Made by a program: the position numbers and the translations under genes | NCBI GenBank assembly: GCA_963675755.2 | Contig: CAXXMD010000002.1 | Location: forward strand, 1,824,001 to 1,888,000 | DNA: 64,000 nt | From: a bacterium | GTDB taxonomy: Bacteria; Zhuqueibacterota; Zhuqueibacteria; Residuimicrobiales; Krinioviventaceae | Reading direction: 5' to 3' | Notes under the pieces: generated by a model | Seen by the model: the letters and a program-made list of their open reading frames with translations, nothing else | Databases searched by the model: none | Told to the model about the DNA's origin: nothing | In this document: positions 50,098 through 61,826 of the stretch, in pieces | How positions within the stretch are numbered: position 1 is the stretch's first letter | Layout: every line of letters starts with the position of its first letter

Positions 50098-53000
50098 CTA
50101 TCGAATCAAGATCATTTTTTTAGTATCTGTAAAATGACCTGCAGTTATTTTGCAAAAATAAACTCCACTCCCCACCTGTTGACCATATTGGTCGGTTCCA
50201 TTCCACTGCAATTCATAGACACCTGCGTTTTGTCTACTGTTTTGCAAAGTATTAACCCGCTGGCCATTCATATTATAAACGGACAACTCTACATTCGACG
50301 CTTGAGACAAGCTGTAGCTGATAGTAGTTACAGGATTAAACGGATTGGGATAATTCTGGTTCAGCACAAACGCATCAGGGGTGCTGCTGTTATCGCCTTC
50401 TATCAATACAGGAATTCCGGAGGATAATCGTACATCCCCAACCATATCACCGTGATTGCCGTTAATAGACAAGTCACGCACATCATTGGCTCCCGGTTCA
50501 CCAACGCCCAGATCTTCCAGTTCGTCAAAACGCCAGTAACCGATCAGACCATAACTATCATCCTTGTAAAATTCTTCAGGTAACGGATCGTACATATATT
50601 CGGTAACAAACCATGGAGAGCGGTCATGATTCCAAATACGCACCTCGTCAATCAGGCCTTGAAAATACTGACTAGGAATACCTTGACGGCTTCCAACCCA
50701 AAATTCCTGATAAAGAGTATTAACATCACCAATCGCTCCATCCGCCCAATACCCCTGGTACCGGCTGCCGTTCTTGTTTGCAAAATAAAAAGCCATTTCG
50801 TCGGATATAGATTTATAAACAAATGTGATATGCGTCCACATCGAGTCCGGAGCAATAAAGCCGGTATTTTGCCAGCCCCATCCCGGTTCTGTATTTGCAA
50901 TTGAAAAATGTATAGAACCATCCGGGAACCGTGCAACTTCCAGCACACCTTCCAAATTGAAAACAATACCGCCCATAGTGGGATACCCTCCCGGTCCGGT
51001 AGGATAGATCCAGCTTTCAATTGTAAAAGCATCGGATGGCAGTTCCACGTTGGCACCCATGTTCACATAGCCCATCTCGTCATTATCACTCAACACTACC
51101 GCATTGCCCGGCAATTCATTTTCATAGCTAAAACTGAACGAACGGTTCGCTGTATATAATGCAAAACCACCGCCAAAACCGATGCTTCTGTCGGTATCGG
51201 GACGGGAGTTGTTCTTGACCGCCATAACATTTACTTTTTTCCAATCCGGATCTACTGTCACAATCCCCTGGGCACCGGGACTGGTAAGCGCAAAATTCGT
51301 CCCCCAACTGACCTGATAAGGTGTTCCGGTCAGGTCAACATTGGCATATGCTGTATCTAAATGACTGTAGGTCAGGTTTACACTCCCGTAAAGGGGCCTT
51401 CCCGAATAAGGTTCAAAATAGCTGTGAATGGTTTCGGTTTGGGTAAATGTGGTATCCCCTTCTTTAATTGCCAGGTCTGCGGCTTCAATTTCAATCTTGG
51501 TATAGTGGGTGCGCCAATAATCGGTATCTTCCAGCCAGTCCGCATAATTCACTTCCGGGCCTGTCTCTGGCAGAGATAAAAATGTTTTTGCAGTCTCCAG
51601 GCTGTCGCCGGTTTCAGTATCGTAAAACAGACAATATAGCAAGACCGGGGCATTCTGAAAATAATCTCCGGAATTGATCCAAAAATTTCCACCGGGATTG
51701 GGTAAAAACCGACTGTACATTCTTACATCCTCGGCACTGTTATAAATAGCCGGAAAGGTAATGGATTTTGTAACCTGATCGCCGCGAGCATTTCTTACAA
51801 CAACTTTTCCCGCACCTTCCGGAACCGTTGTAAAAGGCTCGGCATTGACATAGAACCCATATTCATTTTTAACGAGGTCAACCTCATGCTCATACCCATA
51901 CATAGGAACGGTTGCCGTTACCCGGGATATGGGGAATTCACCCGGAATGATACTCACCAAGGCACGACTGTATGACGAGGTATCTCCCGGCAAGCTGGAA
52001 AAAGAAGCCATATTTACCTCGGGTGCATTGTTATCTCCGGGACTTGTAAGCACCATCCTTGTATTGGGGTATGTGCGCAAATTCAGCATATCATTGGGTC
52101 TGCCCGCGTTCTCCCATTCATCAATGACATTTTGCGAAGATGAAGACACGTACCATTCATCAGGATAAGCACGTCCTTCAATACGGGTGCCGTTCGGGCC
52201 GTCTTCCACATCCAGAATACGTTTTAAAACCGTTTTCAAACTGTAAGCGGGGTCCCAGCGGTTCCAGCCGGTAAACACCTGGTGGCGTTTGGGTTCCTGA
52301 CTTCCGATAATTGTAATCACATCCATAGAGACCAGCTCAATCTCACTGATGTAATTGTTCCATGATTTGGTGATCTCGTTGTTCTCGTTCCCAATGGTTA
52401 CCACTTCGGCAGATACCTGGGTTACATCAAGACTTAGCGGGGTACCCAGTTGAATGGCCCGAAGCTCTTCCATGGTCACATAAATATCATGACCATTTGC
52501 CTGTCCTACATTGATGGTACCGGTAACAGGGTAACGGCTGGTAGAAGTCCCAGCCGGAGTAAGGCTCTCTGCCTGCGGCAAGGTAAAGGTCTCTATTACC
52601 TTGTCACCCAGCTTTAAATTAACTGTGGGGACCACATCCAGAGCACTTACCGCACCGGTATTTTCTATAAAGACTTGCAGTTCAAGACGCGCCGCTTTAT
52701 CCGGTTGTGTGGTACGGGCACTGTTCCAGTTCATCTCGCTGCTGGAAGTTGTACTATTGCTATAAGACCAGGTTTCGGAAACGGATTCAGAATACTGCGC
52801 GTTACTATTCAAACCACCGGTACCGATTTCGACTCCGGTCGATACTTCCTGGGTAAAGGTACTGGAATTGGATGTTTCATTGGTATAAGCGGTACCCTGT
52901 GCCCCGCCGTGTGAATCCGTAATGGTATCGGTTGGGTACACATCATACTCGGCCATTTTCACCACAATACGCGGACGGGCTGCTACCAGAGGATCATCCT

Positions 53001-53370
53001 CAGGTGGATACACACCTGCCGGTAAATTGGCGCCGGTGGCTTCGGTATAATCGTCATACGGATCGCCGTCGGTGCTGGCACGCCGCCAGTCTGTAATATA
53101 AAAAGTCTTGCTGCTGTCACCATCCCAGGGGACGATGTTGCCGCTTTCTACCATAAACCCGTTTTCTTCAAGAGCTGTGGTAATTCCATCAAAATCAGGA
53201 TCATCATCCGCTTTGACCAAAATGATGGAACCATCCGCATCTGTAACAGGGATCATTCCATTCTCATCCGGGACTTTGGCAGAAAAAACCGGTACTGAAA
53301 GAACTAATAAAGTGAGAATCCATTGACGTGGATGAACATATATCTTGTACAGTAATTTTATGTACTTCAT
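50098..53370 (-). CDS. Binary-toxin-B / anthrax protective antigen-like protein with GON-like, LamG and CTD domains
   Basis: DPDFDGITTALEENGF..STDGDPYDDYTE..PLVAARP; Ser/Thr-rich hairpin; AARLELQVFIENTG..DVVPTVNLKLG..RYP; LamG FTIESWI..GLIDEVRIW; NYPNPFNP; GGAG RBS before Met 53370. Confidence 0.8.
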   Translation of the reverse strand: MKYIKLLYKIYVHPRQWILTLLVLSVPVFSAKVPDENGMIPVTDADGSIILVKADDDPDFDGITTALEENGFMVESGNIVPWDGDSSKTFYITDWRRASTDGDPYDDYTEATGANLPAGVYPPEDDPLVAARPRIVVKMAEYDVYPTDTITDSHGGAQGTAYTNETSNSSTFTQEVSTGVEIGTGGLNSNAQYSESVSETWSYSNSTTSSSEMNWNSARTTQPDKAARLELQVFIENTGAVSALDVVPTVNLKLGDKVIETFTLPQAESLTPAGTSTSRYPVTGTINVGQANGHDIYVTMEELRAIQLGTPLSLDVTQVSAEVVTIGNENNEITKSWNNYISEIELVSMDVITIIGSQEPKRHQVFTGWNRWDPAYSLKTVLKRILDVEDGPNGTRIEGRAYPDEWYVSSSSQNVIDEWENAGRPNDMLNLRTYPNTRMVLTSPGDNNAPEVNMASFSSLPGDTSSYSRALVSIIPGEFPISRVTATVPMYGYEHEVDLVKNEYGFYVNAEPFTTVPEGAGKVVVRNARGDQVTKSITFPAIYNSAEDVRMYSRFLPNPGGNFWINSGDYFQNAPVLLYCLFYDTETGDSLETAKTFLSLPETGPEVNYADWLEDTDYWRTHYTKIEIEAADLAIKEGDTTFTQTETIHSYFEPYSGRPLYGSVNLTYSHLDTAYANVDLTGTPYQVSWGTNFALTSPGAQGIVTVDPDWKKVNVMAVKNNSRPDTDRSIGFGGGFALYTANRSFSFSYENELPGNAVVLSDNDEMGYVNMGANVELPSDAFTIESWIYPTGPGGYPTMGGIVFNLEGVLEVARFPDGSIHFSIANTEPGWGWQNTGFIAPDSMWTHITFVYKSISDEMAFYFANKNGSRYQGYWADGAIGDVNTLYQEFWVGSRQGIPSQYFQGLIDEVRIWNHDRSPWFVTEYMYDPLPEEFYKDDSYGLIGYWRFDELEDLGVGEPGANDVRDLSINGNHGDMVGDVRLSSGIPVLIEGDNSSTPDAFVLNQNYPNPFNPVTTISYSLSQASNVELSVYNMNGQRVNTLQNSRQNAGVYELQWNGTDQYGQQVGSGVYFCKITAGHFTDTKKMILIR

Positions 53371-53843
53371 AATAATACTCCGTTTGGGTGACAATTAAAT
53401 GAATTGGGTTCAAGAATCATTAAACAGAGTAAAGCGGGGGTTTATTCAACGCCAGAGTGAGATAAATCACATTTGCGTAAAATACAACAGAGTGAAAAAA
53501 TTCAATAATTTATTCTAAACAAACCTAGATAGTACAATTTTTTAGCTTTATTTGAATTTAATTCAATTTAACATTGACTTTGCTAAAAAATTTTGTTTTA
53601 TTCAAACATATCTTTTTTAAAATCTAGTGGGAAACAAGAGTTAATGTTTGATATATGAAATATCAATTCAATAAAAGAATTTTCTTTTGCTGTTCTTAAT
53701 CTGGGTGGAATGAAAAATAATGCAATAGAGAAAAACATTATACCATTAACTGGCTACTATTCAAATAGGCTTTACGCCATAAAGAATTTAGAATAAAAAG
53801 ATTTATTATAACAATTGATATACTACTTTTGAAAGGGAAAAGC

Positions 53844-56324: not shown

Positions 56325-56360
56325 AAGGGCGTGTTTTATATTTGACACGCCCTTTTTTTT
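56325..56360 (+). terminator. Intrinsic terminator
   Basis: aagggcgtgt..acacgccctt followed by a T run. Confidence 0.8.
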
Positions 56361-56427: not shown

Positions 56428-56847
56428 CTAAACATCTTTTCCCAACCGCATGCGCTGAGCCAGCACCTCAGCCCGTTTGCCCACCTGCCGGTGCCATACA
56501 CTGTTCAGCATTTCATCTGCAGCGATGTCAAAATCCTTTTTATACATAGCAGCAAGCATACGTTTAAAGCCTGAAAATCGTGTTTTGCCCAAGTTGAATA
56601 CCATTTCAACCAACACTTCCCTGCGGGTATCATCCAAATCGTCAAATGCGGGGACAATGGAGCGTACATCCCGTAACGCGGTCTCGATATCCTCCGCAAG
56701 TATGTGCTCAATCACAGCATCGGACAAGGGCCGGGCTTCCAGATTATGCCCGTACCCGATGGTCCAGATGCCCAACGGGTCCTGATATGCGGTATTGCGC
56801 TTGCCTTCATGATTTTTAATGGATTGTATCAAATTTTGCATATTCAT
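56428..56847 (-). CDS. Phage lysozyme/endolysin (GH24, T4-like)
   Basis: HEG..AYQDPLGIWTIGYGH with E-x8-D-x5-T triad; MVFNLG; SVWHRQVGKRA. Confidence 0.9.
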   Translation of the reverse strand: MNMQNLIQSIKNHEGKRNTAYQDPLGIWTIGYGHNLEARPLSDAVIEHILAEDIETALRDVRSIVPAFDDLDDTRREVLVEMVFNLGKTRFSGFKRMLAAMYKKDFDIAADEMLNSVWHRQVGKRAEVLAQRMRLGKDV

Positions 56848-57030
56848 ACTGTTCTCCTCAATTTAACCACAGATAAACGCAGATTAACATTAAAGTATTT
56901 AATTTATGTATTTTTCTGCAAATGTCTGATTTTGAGTCAATCTTTAGTTTAGTATTTGTAAAACCGGGAACCTAGAGCATTCCCTAACGTTCAATATTAT
57001 GAGGTTTCATGTTGCCCTCCTCTCCAAATA

Positions 57031-57065
57031 TCGCCCACCTGAGTGACGGCTATTCAGGTGGGTGA
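57031..57065. terminator. Stem-loop between the small HTH gene and the lysozyme gene
   Basis: tcgcccacctgag / ttcaggtgggtga inverted repeat. Confidence 0.5.
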
Positions 57066-57071
57066 TTTGGT

Positions 57072-57260
57072 TTAGTGCCTGCCGTAATAAATATCTTCCA
57101 GTGTTGATGGTGCGTAACCGGTTTCATCCGACAGATCCATACAAGCTTGCTTGACATAACTTCGAACTCCGGCGTTCCATAATCTGACTGCATGATCATA
57201 CACCCTGCGGCGGATTGCATTATGCCGCTTTACCGTACTCTTTCTCTTTGGCATCGTCAT
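57072..57260 (-). CDS. Small basic phage protein, possible HTH
   Basis: ATGA-coupled to the terminase stop; LSDETGYAPSTLEDIYY HTH-like end. Confidence 0.6.
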   Translation of the reverse strand: MTMPKRKSTVKRHNAIRRRVYDHAVRLWNAGVRSYVKQACMDLSDETGYAPSTLEDIYYGRH

Positions 57261-58732
57261 CTCCCTTTGCTGATCCAGAACATACCTGTCCAATTGTCGT
57301 TTGTGTGTGGGTAAAATGTATTCAATACAGCATCCAGCCGGTCCGGCGAACGTCCCAGCCGGGTGATGATCTTTTCCTTGCTTTCGATCTGGATTTTCCC
57401 ATTCGATTGTACCACATATTGCGGAGCAGTAATTTCCTGCAGTAATGCGTCATCCGGGGGTAACGCCAGTTTTATCTCTCCGGCAGGGTCCAAAGCATCC
57501 CGCAATGCCCAGTGCAGCCAAGCGCGCATATTCACAAACTGACGCTCTCCTGTTACATCGCCAAGATCCTGCGCGGATTCCGATCCTTTCACACTGACAG
57601 CATTTACATTCTGCTCCTTTAATCGCGCGTAGACACCGGCCCCCTCACCGATCGTATCAACAAACGCAGTATCTTCATCCACCCGCAACTCATTACAAAT
57701 CCGCCCCGATACCGCCATCGCATCGAGCTTGGAATATACCGAAATGCTTTCAATCACCTGTTCATATCGTCTTGCAAAACAGGTCGAGTCCCTTCCCATA
57801 CCAGCCACATCAACACCCAAACGCATAAAGCCCTGCTTGCGCTCGGTTTCATTCATCTGCCGCCAACGCTGCTGCGCGGCCTCTACCCAGGCAACAGGTA
57901 TGAGCTGTCCCTCTGCTTCTTTGGGAAACTCACCCAGCACCTTGACCCTGAATAAATCGTTGGGACGATACCACTGCCCCTTGAAAGGAAAATCCATCAT
58001 TCCCGCATCGATTTCATCAGCAGAGATTTTACGGCACCAGGATTCAACCCGCTCTTTTACCCAGGTATAATCCACCTGACCGGGTACCAGTGTTTTACGG
58101 GCACGCACATTTACCGCATTCAAACTGCTCAGCTTGAATTTGCTGTACAAGGGACTGGTTACGCTTTTATACGCCTCCCCCGAGGTCCGCACCGGATTAA
58201 AGATAAGCAGCAGTCGCGAGTCGCCGGTCAGCAATCCCTCAATAGCTTCAAATGTCTCCTCCGCCAGACCGCTGGCTTCGGTTACCACCACCAAAATATT
58301 GGGCGAGTGGTACCCGGTCCACGATTCCACTGCCTTGTCCCCGGCTTTAAATCCCTCCAGAAACCAATTGGGCTCACCGTCAAACTTTATTCGGGTTGCG
58401 GTTACGCGTCCCCCCAGCGGTACCAGTGCATTTTTGTGCAGCCTGCCAATCTCAGTCATCATAATGGATGTTACCTGACGCTGTGTAGGCGCGGTATTGA
58501 TAACCTTGGATGGATAATGCAAATATAGAAAACATAGCGAAGCCACTGCCGCGGTAAAATCTTTGCCGCGGGCATGTCCCGAACGTACAGAAACACGGCG
58601 CCCATGCTGCAAGGCGCTGATAATCCTTCGCTGCTGCCGGTCCAATCGCACCCCCAGAATCTCTCGCACAAAGGCGTTCCAGTCCTGCTGATAGTGATGA
58701 AATAGTGCCCGGTCCTTATCCTCTATCCGCAT
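57257..58732 (-). CDS. terL: Phage terminase large subunit
   Basis: Walker A SGHARGKD, TAPTQRQ, Walker-B-like VVVTEASG, FNP, VLGEFP; nuclease LGVDVAGMGRD, DTIGEGAGV, SPDRLDA. Confidence 0.9.
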   Translation of the reverse strand: MRIEDKDRALFHHYQQDWNAFVREILGVRLDRQQRRIISALQHGRRVSVRSGHARGKDFTAAVASLCFLYLHYPSKVINTAPTQRQVTSIMMTEIGRLHKNALVPLGGRVTATRIKFDGEPNWFLEGFKAGDKAVESWTGYHSPNILVVVTEASGLAEETFEAIEGLLTGDSRLLLIFNPVRTSGEAYKSVTSPLYSKFKLSSLNAVNVRARKTLVPGQVDYTWVKERVESWCRKISADEIDAGMMDFPFKGQWYRPNDLFRVKVLGEFPKEAEGQLIPVAWVEAAQQRWRQMNETERKQGFMRLGVDVAGMGRDSTCFARRYEQVIESISVYSKLDAMAVSGRICNELRVDEDTAFVDTIGEGAGVYARLKEQNVNAVSVKGSESAQDLGDVTGERQFVNMRAWLHWALRDALDPAGEIKLALPPDDALLQEITAPQYVVQSNGKIQIESKEKIITRLGRSPDRLDAVLNTFYPHTNDNWTGMFWISKGR

Positions 58733-59156
58733 GTATCCCCTTGACCAGATCTGAAAAGGTTACCTGCACCTCGCTGCTTACCTGTTTGGGGGAATCAATG
58801 CCCAGCAGTTCGCAACGCTTGTTAATGCACCACTGTACCCCCTGCAAATAACGGGGATTCCCCCCTTTTATTACTGCAATCTCATTGTTTTCGTTATTCA
58901 TATTCCCCTCTCCGGTAGAATGTTTCCAAGCGGACCAGTATTCCTGCTGCAACTGGTCTATACGCGCCAACTCGCAGCTCTTTGCCAGATGAAAATCCAT
59001 CAAAGCCGAACCGCGCCATTGTTCATTGAGTTCTTTTAAATACCGGCTTACCGTTGCCTGCGATATACCCAGTTCTTGTGCAATTTCAGACTGGTTATAA
59101 TGCTTGTACAGGTACAACTCGGCCATTCGCTTTATATTGTGCGTTTTACGCCCCAT
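58716..59156 (-). CDS. terS: Probable terminase small subunit
   Basis: N-terminal HTH NQSEIAQELGISQATVSRYL; C-terminal KRCELLGIDSP; overlaps the terL start. Confidence 0.7.
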   Translation of the reverse strand: MGRKTHNIKRMAELYLYKHYNQSEIAQELGISQATVSRYLKELNEQWRGSALMDFHLAKSCELARIDQLQQEYWSAWKHSTGEGNMNNENNEIAVIKGGNPRYLQGVQWCINKRCELLGIDSPKQVSSEVQVTFSDLVKGIHADRG

Positions 59157-59437
59157 TACTGCACCTGCAAATCCAGATTACGAATGATACGGTCGCTTTC
59201 CAGATAATCATCAATATATCGCTGTTTTGCCCACTCGAACGTAGGTACCTGTGCCGGCGGTACCCAGCACCAACGGTTTTCGATCTCTCCGGGACGGTCA
59301 TCCATTTCAGCAGGACGATAAACACACTCGCCCGATTGACGCATAACATTCACAAATGTGGGATACGCAGACGCCCGCCTGTCATTTTTTTCAGAACGAA
59401 AATAGAGTCCGCCATTGGATTGTCTTAAAATATTCAT
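59156..59437 (-). CDS. Hypothetical protein
   Basis: AAGGGG RBS; stop overlaps the terS start; no recognised motif. Confidence 0.6.
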   Translation of the reverse strand: MNILRQSNGGLYFRSEKNDRRASAYPTFVNVMRQSGECVYRPAEMDDRPGEIENRWCWVPPAQVPTFEWAKQRYIDDYLESDRIIRNLDLQVQ

Positions 59438-59582
59438 ACACATCCCCTTTCGGTTACACCATACACTTTTCAAGAGACAACAGGTTGCCGCCCGAAAATC
59501 CAATGTTGAAATTTTAGTGGTTACTGCTAAACTGCAAGACTAACTGCAAAAGAAAGGAATTACAACCCCACGGAATGTTCCG

Positions 59583-60524
59583 TTATCCTCTTTTTAAAAC
59601 AAAACGCCGACTGCCGGGGCGGCTTTCGGTATAGGCATTGTACAATGACGGGAAATCCTGTTTAAAACGTTGATTATCAAATCGCACACTGTCTTTACTT
59701 TGACGCCAGGTTACTAGCGCATCATCCCCATCTTTGAGCACCGACGCGTCTTTCATCAACAATTTAATTTGCTGCTCAAGATCAGATTTTTGGGAGCCAA
59801 GTTCAGCCAATTGACGGGTTACATCTGTCAGCCTCTCCAATGTTTCAAAAGTGGTATCATCTACCTGTACACACTTTTCAGGATTTACCCTGGGCCAGAG
59901 CGTACGGATATCACTCTCATTGCTGGGTTCGGGAGGCACTCTTTTTTCAACATGATTGTGCCAGAAATCCAGCAATTGCTCCCTCATTAACGCAATGTAT
60001 TCCGCATCATACACAACCGGAATATCCTTGAGATCATACCCATCCACCAGCACGGCCACTCGTCCCCACTTGTGACCGGTCACATGCAGATAGTGCATGA
60101 TCTGACAATAGGTATCCGGCGGCAGGCCATTATCCTCCCAGCGTTTGAAATTGAACCCGGAAGTGGTCTTGACTTCCAAAACTCCGGCCCCCCGGTCATC
60201 ATTCGTTGCCGAGATCAACCGGTCGATATTTGCCAATAACACCGGATATTGTGAATGAAAACGCACCTTGTTATCCCGCCTGACTTTGCATCCATTCTCC
60301 AATGCCCACCACTGCGCTACCACATCCTCTAACAAACGCCCGGCTTTCATGCGAGCGTTTTCCTGAACGGGTTTGGATTGACCGATTTTCTCCAAATACA
60401 CATCCACCGCAGTTTTGTAAGGAGACAATCCCAAAATAGCGGCGACATCCGTTCCGCCAATGCCTGTGCGACGTACTTTTAGCCAGGATTCTTTGTTCAT
60501 TGATACTGTTGAAAGATAAGCCAT
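59583..60524 (-). CDS. YqaJ-like viral recombinase (lambda-exonuclease family)
   Basis: WLKVRRTGIGGTDVAAILGLSPYKT, GRLLE, ANIDR, LEVKT, YCQIMHYL, FW..V..RVPP, SRRF. Confidence 0.9.
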   Translation of the reverse strand: MAYLSTVSMNKESWLKVRRTGIGGTDVAAILGLSPYKTAVDVYLEKIGQSKPVQENARMKAGRLLEDVVAQWWALENGCKVRRDNKVRFHSQYPVLLANIDRLISATNDDRGAGVLEVKTTSGFNFKRWEDNGLPPDTYCQIMHYLHVTGHKWGRVAVLVDGYDLKDIPVVYDAEYIALMREQLLDFWHNHVEKRVPPEPSNESDIRTLWPRVNPEKCVQVDDTTFETLERLTDVTRQLAELGSQKSDLEQQIKLLMKDASVLKDGDDALVTWRQSKDSVRFDNQRFKQDFPSLYNAYTESRPGSRRFVLKRG

Positions 60525-60576
60525 ATACACCCCTTTTCCGGGCAGTGCCTGTAAACCTCCCCAAACACTCCCAATA

Positions 60577-60660
60577 GTTAATAAAAGTTTATATTAGTTT
60601 CTAAATTAACTTAAACAAAGTTAAACTTTTATTAACAAAAGTCAAGTTAAATTTTTATTA
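60577..60660. promoter_or_regulatory. Divergent control region with operator-like repeats
   Basis: 15-bp perfect inverted repeat 60577-60591/60622-60636; direct repeat aagttaaa(c/t)ttttatta at 60618 and 60644; minus-strand TTGACT-N16-TAACTT (60645-60618). Confidence 0.6.
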
Positions 60661-60711
60661 GTTTATGTTTTTTTTGCTTTGTTTTAGGATGGAAATACTG
60701 TATATTTAGAT

Positions 60712-61398
60712 ATGAAAAACATTGCAAAGGAAATACAGGCTATTCTGGATCAGGATCTGATCAGCGTTGAAGAACTGGCAGAGCGCACGGGCCTGACTGT
60801 ACCGGGATTAAAAAAAATTCTGAATGGCCAAACCTCCAGCGTACAGCGTTCCACCATTCGCAAGATTGCTGACGGGACCGGACGCGTGGCCAGAATAGAA
60901 GGTGACACGGTTACCTTTACCCCGGACCTGCCCTCTACGGACAATGTCCCTCCTTTGGAAAGTAATGATAACGCCCTGCCCATTGTTCAGCACGAACGGG
61001 AAGTACCGCATTTCAACGTAGAAGCCGGCGCCGGCATTGGCCAGGCGGTTGCGTCTGAACATATTTCCAGCTATACCAAAATCTTTCCCGGCGTGCACCC
61101 ATCTGTCCAGTTTACGGTTCGCGCCAAAGGCGACAGTATGCAGCTTGCCGGCATAAATGATGGCGATCTGCTATTTGTCACACCCGTAACCGACGCGCGT
61201 ACGGTAAAAAACGGCGCCATTGTGATTGTGGCGGATGAAGATGGCGATCTGCTGGTCAAAATTTTTCAGCGCGAAGGCGATACCATTATGCTGTTTTCCG
61301 CGTCACCGCAATACCGTCCCATTATCAAATCCGCCGACCAGGTACGAATCATTGGCCGCGTCATCCACAGCAGTCATTTAAATACATTCGAGTTGTAA
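60712..61398 (+). CDS. CI/LexA-like repressor (XRE HTH + S24 autopeptidase)
   Basis: HTH SVEELAERTGLTVPGLKKILNG; cleavage-site VEAG; catalytic GDSM and LVK. Confidence 0.9.
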   Translation: MKNIAKEIQAILDQDLISVEELAERTGLTVPGLKKILNGQTSSVQRSTIRKIADGTGRVARIEGDTVTFTPDLPSTDNVPPLESNDNALPIVQHEREVPHFNVEAGAGIGQAVASEHISSYTKIFPGVHPSVQFTVRAKGDSMQLAGINDGDLLFVTPVTDARTVKNGAIVIVADEDGDLLVKIFQREGDTIMLFSASPQYRPIIKSADQVRIIGRVIHSSHLNTFEL

Positions 61399-61414: not shown

Positions 61415-61826
61415 TTAACCACAGATTAATGCAGATAAAAAGTTCGATGTTTATAAAAAGTGTTATATAAAATTTGCCCACGAAACACTCGAAATAACAT
61501 GAAAACCATACCAAAAATAAATATGCTCTCCCCTATCTATGTAGTTCTGTGTGAATCCGTGGTTCAATAATTTTTGATTTAGCCACGGATCTACACGGAT
61601 TCTCACGGATGAAAAAATAATACTAACCAGATTTTATTGCGTATTTACAGTAAACGGTTCATCTTCTAAACCAAAGATGAACACAGATGCTACAACCGTA
61701 GGAAATCATTTTTGCGCTTTTTTCGCGTGCTTTGCGTTTTGTATTTTTTTCGTGATTTTATTATCTATCTATGTAGTTCTGTGTGAATCCATGGCTTAAT
61801 AATTTTTTTGATTTAGCCACGGATCT
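61415..61826. repeat. Intergenic cluster of 9-10-bp periodic repeats with a ~60-bp direct duplication
   Basis: ccacggatc-tacacggat-tctcacggat; 61533-61592 duplicated at 61765-61826; ttaaccacagat..gcagat at 61415. Confidence 0.75.

Follow-up and report, generated by a model that had tools for sequence, protein, structure and literature searches.

The window analysed here is a 64,000-nt stretch of the genome of a candidate division KSB1 bacterium (G000:C2:1824001-1888000; the host genome, G000, comprises 6.48 Mb in 3 contigs with a GC content of 0.39), and the element under study is a cassette of seven intact phage-type open reading frames (ORFs) at window positions 56428-61398, six of them on the minus strand and a repressor gene facing them on the plus strand. 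On balance, we lean towards a multi-locus domesticated phage that would make particles similar to gene transfer agents (GTAs) or to PBSX; the cassette would supply its regulator, packaging and lysis functions, and portal and major capsid protein (MCP) genes lie in a head-tail operon elsewhere on the same contig. Because gene order and identities relative to a related prophage and a tree of large terminase subunits (TerL) agree, the two loci are assigned by sequence comparison to one phage lineage, and each supplies genes that the other is without, terminase in one case and portal and MCP in the other. Comparisons were made with the sister species (G001), a second genus (G014 and G017) and a further member of the family (G004).

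Cassette proteins were assigned to families by Pfam, PHROGs and NCBIfam scans (Table 1). A preliminary description of the region had reported a 5-kb module of intact, partly translationally coupled ORFs with catalytic motifs in place and host-type genes on both sides, all of which held. TerL overlaps the gene of the small terminase subunit (TerS) by 17 nt, the TerS gene overlaps that of a 93-aa hypothetical protein (hyp) by 1 nt, and 2 nt separate the TerL stop from the start of a gene for a 60-aa basic protein (sm60), which is followed after a 224-nt spacer by the lysozyme gene. The flanking genes encode surface proteins sorted by the type IX secretion system (T9SS) and a B-box zinc protein. 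The cassette is single-copy, and its genes have a GC content of 0.47-0.52 versus 0.39 for the genome. No integrase, excisionase, Cro, annealase, holin, transmembrane (TM) or replication protein was detected in the cassette locus by Pfam, PHROGs, NCBIfam and TM scans, in line with the earlier statement that Cro, annealase, holin and integrase were missing, and the 64-kb window contained no tRNA gene.

The repressor fits the LexA/lambda-CI S24 class, with an N-terminal helix-turn-helix (HTH; PF01381/PF13443), an Ala-Gly pair in EAGAG (from residue 104) at a position typical of self-cleavage, and a Ser-Lys dyad (GDSM from residue 140, lysine of LVKIF from residue 181). From these S24 motifs alone we infer a putative self-cleaving protein that may be inducible by DNA damage. 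The D..EVK motif of the YqaJ-type exonuclease lies at residues 103-120. The ATPase and nuclease motifs of TerL are complete, with SGHARGKD (Walker A) from residue 51, VVVTEA from residue 148 and the nuclease aspartates D308, D359, D464 and D467; Walker A, Walker B and these aspartates are invariant in 7/7 aligned TerLs. TerS has an N-terminal HTH at residues ~10-46 (HTH_28) that is kept in G014; homologues of TerS adjoin TerL in other prophage loci (tblastn). The lysozyme residues E14, D23 and T29 have the spacing of T4 lysozyme; a signal, a signal-arrest-release (SAR) segment and a TM window were looked for in its sequence and none was found.

Two small proteins of the cassette are less easily placed. 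For sm60, called an HTH protein in the preliminary description, the listed ORF spans 57072-57293, and the real gene is probably the shorter form given in Table 1. An AlphaFold2 (AF2) model of three helices (predicted local distance difference test, pLDDT, 87) gave the Mu transposase DNA-binding subdomain as its best, weak fold match (all matches E>1), and a PDB sequence search gave nothing below E 0.89; sm60 is a candidate DNA-binding protein or late regulator, and a homologue with 38% identity lies upstream of TerS in the full prophage of G001. For the hypothetical protein, listed as ORF 59156-59503, translation probably starts at 59437, for a length of 93 aa. The protein is rare, with 5 proteins in 5.8 billion clusters and 4 in 1.84 billion representatives (E<=0.001), and remote homologues occur in the early region of the G001 prophage and in G004. 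It had no Pfam, PHROG, NCBIfam or PADLOC match, no PDB sequence match below E 0.68 and no Foldseek match at E<=0.001; its AF2 model (pLDDT 71) had no fold match and an Atlas search yielded no usable match. A relation to PAS domains (profile E 7.5e-5) was dropped at an hhalign probability of only 30%.

The cassette is conserved as a set of seven genes that evolve under purifying selection. In G001 it lies at the syntenic site with all seven ORFs intact, at ~91% nucleotide identity compared with 88-90% in the flanks, and its repressor is 99% identical. Ratios of non-synonymous to synonymous divergence (dN/dS; pairwise NG86, G000 versus G001, one species pair) were 0.243 for lys, 0.057 for sm, 0.068 for terL, 0.041 for terS, 0.025 for hyp, 0.057 for yqaJ and 0.009 for cI, with dS of 0.28-0.51 compared with 0.29-0.49 in five flanking host genes (dN/dS 0.085-0.204). 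In G014 all seven genes recur in unchanged order, with identities of 73% (cI), 58% (yqaJ), 64% (hyp), 52% (terS), 72% (terL), 63% (sm) and 60% (lys) and a GC content of 0.53-0.60 versus 0.34-0.41 alongside; the flanks there are non-syntenic and map elsewhere in G000 or nowhere. Synteny and dN/dS in relatives had been proposed as a check on whether the module was domesticated or in random decay, and the syntenic intact copy, dN/dS of 0.009-0.24 at flank-like dS and the order retained in another genus all speak for domestication.

The cassette is also rare. From one-genome-per-species contigs, 134 TerL relatives were confirmed and 80 loci kept, among which at least three cassette genes were found only at the G001 and G014 loci, the others having TerL alone or TerS and TerL. 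A metagenome scan gave two loci, one identical to the G014 cassette and one with a TerL at 56% identity without other cassette genes. A 3740-nt contig bearing homologues of both the 93-aa and the 60-aa protein points to a further cassette, and others may be marked by two contigs of 5906 and 12014 nt that each encode another homologue of the 93-aa protein. When contigs of four sequencing runs were compared with the region, one run from another study had a G001-like copy.

The preliminary description had found no capsid or portal gene, which stands for the cassette locus and not for the genome. A search with PF05065 (1 match in the genome) led to a head-tail operon of ~11 kb on one strand at G000:C2:2017981-2029144 (L095:2982-14145), ~133 kb from the cassette, with host genes on both sides and no terminase, integrase, excisionase or replication protein by Pfam, PHROGs and NCBIfam. 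The locus is syntenic in G000 and G001, with dN/dS of 0.017 for MCP, 0.028 for the portal and 0.05-0.37 for ten other ORFs; an 87-aa ORF is poorly conserved (0.456). G017 has the complete locus in the same order (31-82% identity), with no room for a tape measure gene. In G014 the portal forms a single-gene high-GC island beside a block syntenic to a portal-free G000 region. The stretch encoding the 390-aa to 269-aa proteins stops 290 nt short of a contig end, and the last four genes begin 750 nt from the end of another contig, so that the two pieces may be neighbours. About six tandem units of ~50 nt resembling repetitive extragenic palindromes (GGGGCAGAG..GGCGGACACACAGGTCCGCCCTTACGA) adjoin the portal promoter on its upstream side (L095:14146-14400, G000:C2 ~2029145-2029400), with two copies at the equivalent place in G001, and in both species an AbiEi/AbiEii type IV toxin-antitoxin pair adjoins the locus (L095:14739-16596, G000:C2 ~2029738-2031595).

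The parent lineage is represented by an apparently complete, intact prophage of ~50 kb in G001 (C1 ~2842400-2892700; L113, L013, L114) with host-like GC, whose site is empty in G000 between C2:732193 and 732353. Its genes include ~40 early genes, those for a 1559-aa tape measure and distal tail proteins and, at one end, a 383-aa ORF that is integrase-sized (judged by size alone). The TerL of this prophage shares 58% identity with the cassette TerL and is directly followed by a portal gene (43% to the lone portal) and then MCP (59%). The head-tail locus starts with exactly the gene that follows TerL in this prophage, so that the break falls at TerL|portal. Seven head-tail proteins match the prophage in order (portal and MCP as above, the rest 29-54%), and in a wider tblastn search eleven were matched in prophage order (lowest 23%); the locus is without the gene at the head-morphogenesis position (413 aa) and two small ORFs at the chaperone position. 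A maximum-likelihood tree of 29 TerLs groups the three cassette copies in a clade (99/98), with the TerL of the G001 prophage as its sister (99/95). In two other phage relatives (L003 and L005) the genes after TerS and TerL encode a portal (phrog_64), a head-morphogenesis protein and a major head protein (phrog_29), the TerS directly upstream of TerL being of phrog_645 in viral contig L005 and of phrog_51 in L003; a viral scan gave one ordinary phage contig. G004 has at least three related prophages (contigs C3, C9, C10 and C26; portal 45-48%, MCP 38-49%, YqaJ 46%) with a different TerL type, and three truncated 243-aa portal fragments at 50-51%.

Within G000 the cassette TerL was the only TerL found (phrog_2, PF03237, PF03354 and the TerL type of the G004 prophages), and no other portal or capsid was detected by phrog_64, phrog_29, PF04860 or PF05133. 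The two further phrog_2 matches were rejected as a helicase and a PhoH protein; one of these spurious matches came from a low-GC island (0.25-0.34; L096, G000:C3:590000-606000) that looks like a restriction or defence island and encodes a helicase and a DNA methyltransferase besides a 1086-aa phrog_22462 protein. Presence and absence were surveyed in 19 genomes of the host's family, which are kin and hence not independent samples, so that the counts do not amount to a statistical test. The cassette occurred in 3 (G000, G001 and G014) and a portal orthologue at >=70% in 4 (these and G017), which leaves the cassette in 0/15 portal-less genomes and a portal in 3/3 cassette genomes. GC content at third codon positions (GC3) in G000 was 0.53 for the cassette, 0.45 for the head-tail locus and 0.39 for the host; in G014 it was 0.67 for the cassette, 0.72 for the portal and 0.44 for the host. 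The two loci thus have an atypical composition in common, which changes in step between the genomes; the active prophage is host-like at 0.36. Between-genus identities of the better conserved genes (52-83%) resemble those of likely host orthologues (45-76%), which fits co-divergence with the host. The distance between the loci is ~133 kb in G000 and ~98 kb in G001; in G014 they are spread over at least 3 contigs. A search for an unlinked portal, capsid and tail cluster, as proposed in the preliminary description, thus did find one, of the same lineage as the cassette; this lends direct support to the 'dispersed GTA cluster' named there as one option, although the shared operator also looked for was not found.

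In the divergent control region between cI and yqaJ, the inverted pair GTTAATAAAAGTTTA brackets the predicted promoter of the yqaJ operon, formed on the minus strand by TTG..TTTG and TAACTTTG, which we take to be -33 and -7 elements on the assumption of a Bacteroidota consensus TTTG / TAnnTTTG. This layout is kept in G001 and G014, and the pair is a putative repressor operator. Exact copies of the 15-mer are confined to the cassette in the 6.48-Mb genome; five one-mismatch copies occur elsewhere, none near the head-tail locus. Upstream of the portal, 4/4 genomes have TGTGTAAnTTACCCAA with the palindrome GTAAnTTAC, then TTGCTTTGA and, ~20 nt on, TATCTTTG; the palindrome sequence occurs once in G000, and neither the cassettes nor the full prophage contain it. 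That sm60 acts at this palindrome is a guess prompted by its three-helix model and by the position of its homologue upstream of the prophage TerS. In a three-genome alignment the element between sm60 and the lysozyme gene consists of hairpin arms (57030-57042 / 57054-57066) followed by GGAG(A)GGAGGGCA..ATG.AAC..ATTGAAC; the stem varies by genus yet pairs (CCCACCTGA/TCAGGTGGG in G000 versus CCGCCTGAA/TTCGGGCGG in G014), and the motif was found once in the G000 genome. It is a candidate leaky terminator, antitermination site or packaging site.

Table 1. Features of the cassette (window coordinates) and of the unlinked head-tail operon (by gene order).
Feature	Position	Strand	Details
GH24 (T4-type) lysozyme, last cassette gene	56428..56847	-	139 aa; PF00959 2.8e-17, phrog_7 endolysin 2.9e-25
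Conserved non-coding element between sm60 and lysozyme	56989..57071	-	~80 nt; three-genome alignment
60-aa basic three-helix protein (sm60)	57072..57254	-	gene callers give 60-aa form
Large terminase TerL	57257..58732	-	491 aa; phrog_2 1.3e-30, no Pfam match
Small terminase TerS	58716..59156	-	146 aa; HTH_28 4.4e-07, Terminase_5 1e-4, phrog_645 6.9e-11
93-aa hypothetical protein	59156..59437	-	invariant RPAEMD..RPGE..NRWCWVPP
YqaJ / lambda-Exo-type exonuclease, first gene of operon	59583..60530	-	315 aa; PF09588 2.3e-33, phrog_434 1.1e-89, TIGR03033 1.3e-30
Divergent control region cI/yqaJ	60531..60711	.	181 nt; perfect 15-nt inverted pair GTTAATAAAAGTTTA at 60577-60591 and 60622-60636
cI/LexA-like repressor, HTH_3 and S24 domain	60712..61398	+	228 aa; PF00717 7.7e-22, HTH_26 7.6e-06, phrog_4 4.2e-28
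Portal	first gene of head-tail operon		453 aa; phrog_30703 1.6e-66
Three ORFs	between portal and MCP, in order		87, 390 and 149 aa
MCP	after the 149-aa ORF		366 aa; phrog_3922 1.8e-53; TIGR01554
Five ORFs	after MCP, in order		134, 167, 190, 269 and 127 aa; the 269-aa protein is at the tail-tube position
LVIVD-repeat protein and two ORFs	end of head-tail operon		1002 aa, then 127 and 91 aa

If the cassette is part of a domesticated particle system, the S24 repressor would bind the inverted 15-mers and keep the yqaJ-hyp-terS-terL-sm60(-lys) operon off until DNA damage, through activated RecA (RecA*), set off its self-cleavage. The unlinked head-tail operon, with its own conserved palindrome and promoter, would be turned on as well, possibly with sm60 acting there. 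TerS and TerL would then cleave the chromosome and package its DNA into procapsids by way of the unlinked portal, possibly with YqaJ processing the DNA ends, and the lysozyme would aid release of the particles. The loci would be too far apart for one head, so that the element could not transmit itself.

Several points weigh against this account. No operator or motif common to the two loci emerged when the 15-mer, the portal palindrome and the element after sm60 were scanned genome-wide; the cassette operator was not found at the unlinked structural cluster, the 15-mer and the palindrome each being unique. G017 has the head-tail cluster, and its assembly (95% complete, 180 contigs) gave no cassette in searches with TerL, cI and YqaJ or with a profile of hyp. 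TerS retains its N-terminal HTH, unlike the putative TerS of known GTAs. Neither locus has a holin or TM protein by TM scan, and the head-tail locus is without the 1559-aa tape measure, the chaperone-position ORFs and a 753-aa distal protein of the prophage, which makes tail assembly uncertain. Ten of twelve head-tail ORFs are without family assignment, their roles being taken from synteny alone (for 9/11, PHROGs at E<=0.1 gave nothing useful). A GC content well above that of the host could mean more recent transfer than assumed. The selection estimate comes from a single species pair with 2-4 non-synonymous changes each in cI, hyp, terS and sm, and the putative particle system is known here from its genes.

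The retained HTH also bears on an unlikely variant, in which the cassette is a domesticated platform for site-specific packaging and the TerS HTH reads a pac site in or beside it. The hairpin element at 56989-57071 and terS would be candidate pac sites, and SOS-induced particles built from the unlinked head genes would carry successive headfuls downstream of the cassette, where G000 has large T9SS-secreted surface proteins. Lateral transduction would in that case have become a fixed trait of the host genome, no longer tied to any phage.

The preliminary description had preferred a domesticated cut-and-lyse unit, inducible by DNA damage, over random decay. Its view of a domesticated unit is supported; the picture of a self-contained unit was probably incomplete, given the unlinked head-tail cluster. 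As a rival explanation of low probability, the cassette would be such a self-contained unit, induced by the SOS response and working without the head-tail locus. Once derepressed, it would degrade DNA by means of the terminase nuclease and YqaJ and lyse the cell with its lysozyme, either as an abortive-infection-like defence or for release of extracellular DNA. Conservation as a compact unit with its own repressor would suit it, as would the lack of a motif common to both loci and the case of G017, which indicates that the loci can exist apart. Yet TerS and the full ATPase motor motifs of TerL are under strong purifying selection, which mere degradation of DNA would not require, a lysozyme without holin or SAR segment cannot reach the wall alone, and all three cassette genomes also have matching portal and capsid genes; in PADLOC, moreover, 9/10 proteins had no match and TerS gave generic HTH matches only. 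The specificity that the TerS HTH could confer would also suit a phage satellite or packaging hijacker, whose own TerS and TerL redirect capsids of a related helper phage to DNA from a cassette pac site. Related intact prophages with compatible portals do circulate in the family (~50-kb type, G001 and G004), the GC content is foreign and the cassette occupies different chromosomal sites in two genera. Within the species pair, however, it is syntenic with dS equal to that of the flanks and has therefore stayed in place since the two species separated. Searches for an integrase, an excisionase, a replication gene and attachment (att) repeats found none that convinced (the flanking 28-nt repeat belongs to a host-wide motif), and G000 is without a helper prophage of that type. 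No reliable excision joint was obtained either: two contigs that skip the cassette (joints 56081->61411 and 56081->62831) had sides of only 24-25 nt at <95% likeness and were discarded. A satellite is thus quite improbable.

That both loci are leftovers of one dead, decaying prophage without function is very improbable and was largely refuted. Decay would allow for the foreign GC and for an incomplete gene set, in which neither integrase and replication genes nor a tape measure or holin gene were found, but 7/7 cassette and 11/12 head-tail ORFs are intact in both species with dN/dS of 0.009-0.37 at dS of 0.1-0.7, the same reduced gene sets and orders recur in a second genus at 31-83% identity, and catalytic residues are invariant. 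What probability remains belongs to functions outside the readings listed.

In published accounts, GTAs resemble remnant phages with packaging and structural genes only (PMC11841831), are not yet separable by sequence from dead prophages (PMC11841831, PMC12946183) and have putative small terminases without a DNA-binding domain (PMC11841831). Like RcGTA of Rhodobacter, CcGTA, BaGTA, VSH-1 of Brachyspira, Dd1, VTA and FpGTA of Faecalibacterium as described there, the present loci combine phage-derived packaging, head, tail and lysis genes; they share with GTAs the lack of replication and integration genes, a distribution over several chromosomal loci, sometimes >100 kb apart, and an apparent inheritance with the host under purifying selection (PMC11841831, PMC12946183). 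The distribution of the present loci is patchy (3-4/19 family genomes). A lone gene for the terminase large subunit outside the VSH-1 cluster is described for Brachyspira hyodysenteriae (PMC2897892). Unlike in GTAs, the terminase here is not beside the portal but shares its locus with an S24 repressor, YqaJ and lysozyme, TerS keeps its HTH, no tape measure was found, and the host belongs to candidate division KSB1. No sequence relationship to the curated GTA families was found either: 0/19 proteins reached an NCBIfam GTA cut-off, the lysozyme scoring 49.4 bits against BgtA, whose cut-off is 315.

PBSX of Bacillus subtilis has a phage-type repressor, is induced by the SOS response, is released by its own lysis genes and keeps its terminase, head, contractile-tail, holin and amidase genes together in a single locus. 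The genes of the present system differ in being split over at least two loci, with a reduced tail and no holin seen. The likeness to PBSX would lie in a defective, non-transmissible element; PBSX packages 13.4-kb chromosomal fragments (PMC12946183). Satellites (PICI, cfPICI, PLE, P4-like and PICMI) are likewise small, with their own packaging-specificity genes and a repressor facing the operon; the cassette departs from them in having no integrase, replication module or att sites and in its immobility since the species split. Also close is the KSB1 temperate siphophage lineage (the G001 prophage, with relatives in G004 and Bacteroidota), in which TerL (58%), TerS (40%), sm60 (38%), portal (43%), MCP (59%) and several head-tail proteins have homologues whose relative order is kept; contiguity, early genes, tape measure and host-like GC belong to the prophage alone. 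Set beside an intact temperate prophage, the genes studied here are split over two loci, and no integrase, replication, tape measure or holin gene was found.

Few GTAs are known outside Alphaproteobacteria, FpGTA being described as among very few such elements (PMC12946183), and literature searches, assessed by title and abstract, gave nothing on prophage-derived particles in KSB1. If the favoured account of a domesticated particle system is true, it would represent an independent domestication in an uncultured phylum, with an unusual layout in which a repressor-exonuclease-terminase-lysozyme cassette is combined with a head-tail operon, without tape measure, elsewhere. Comparative evidence alone parts a maintained system from decay here, namely synteny, dN/dS and the same reduced set in two genera, together with a unique terminase matched to a unique portal and capsid and a shared odd composition. 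A lone terminase cassette plus a terminase-less portal operon provides a search recipe for other genomes.

Other markers were of little use: a peptidase U32 gene was dropped as a measure of genome relatedness (patchy and uninformative), and a genome-wide scan for GC islands was unspecific (91 islands). A 28-nt direct repeat at 56860 / 61412 (86% identity) was rejected as att, since it excludes the lysozyme gene and belongs to a host-wide intergenic motif, CCACRGATnwAYRCRGAT. This motif occurs at window positions 56867, 61419, 61583, 61671, 30839 and 35754 (6 copies versus 0 expected) and in 21 copies genome-wide, with copies bordering both ends of the TerL-cI block. Direct repeats of 43 and 22 nt lie nearby, at 61533/61765 and 61571/61805. 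Between the convergent T9SS gene and the lysozyme gene, a GC-rich hairpin at 56327-56360 (GGGCGTGT..ACACGCCC, then T8) probably serves the plus-strand gene as a terminator and would work only weakly as such on the cassette strand. Further out, 50098-53394 (minus strand) encodes a 1098-aa T9SS-sorted protein (dN/dS 0.089 versus G001) with matches to the Ca-binding domain and domain 2 of clostridial binary toxin B / anthrax protective antigen (2e-12 and 9e-4) and to Laminin_G_3. Beside the cassette of G001, a 2.3-kb insertion between two T9SS genes carries a PemK/MazF toxin gene (L001:17558-17929), and in G014 an IS200/Y1-transposase-like gene with flanking 73-nt direct repeats abuts the lysozyme gene.

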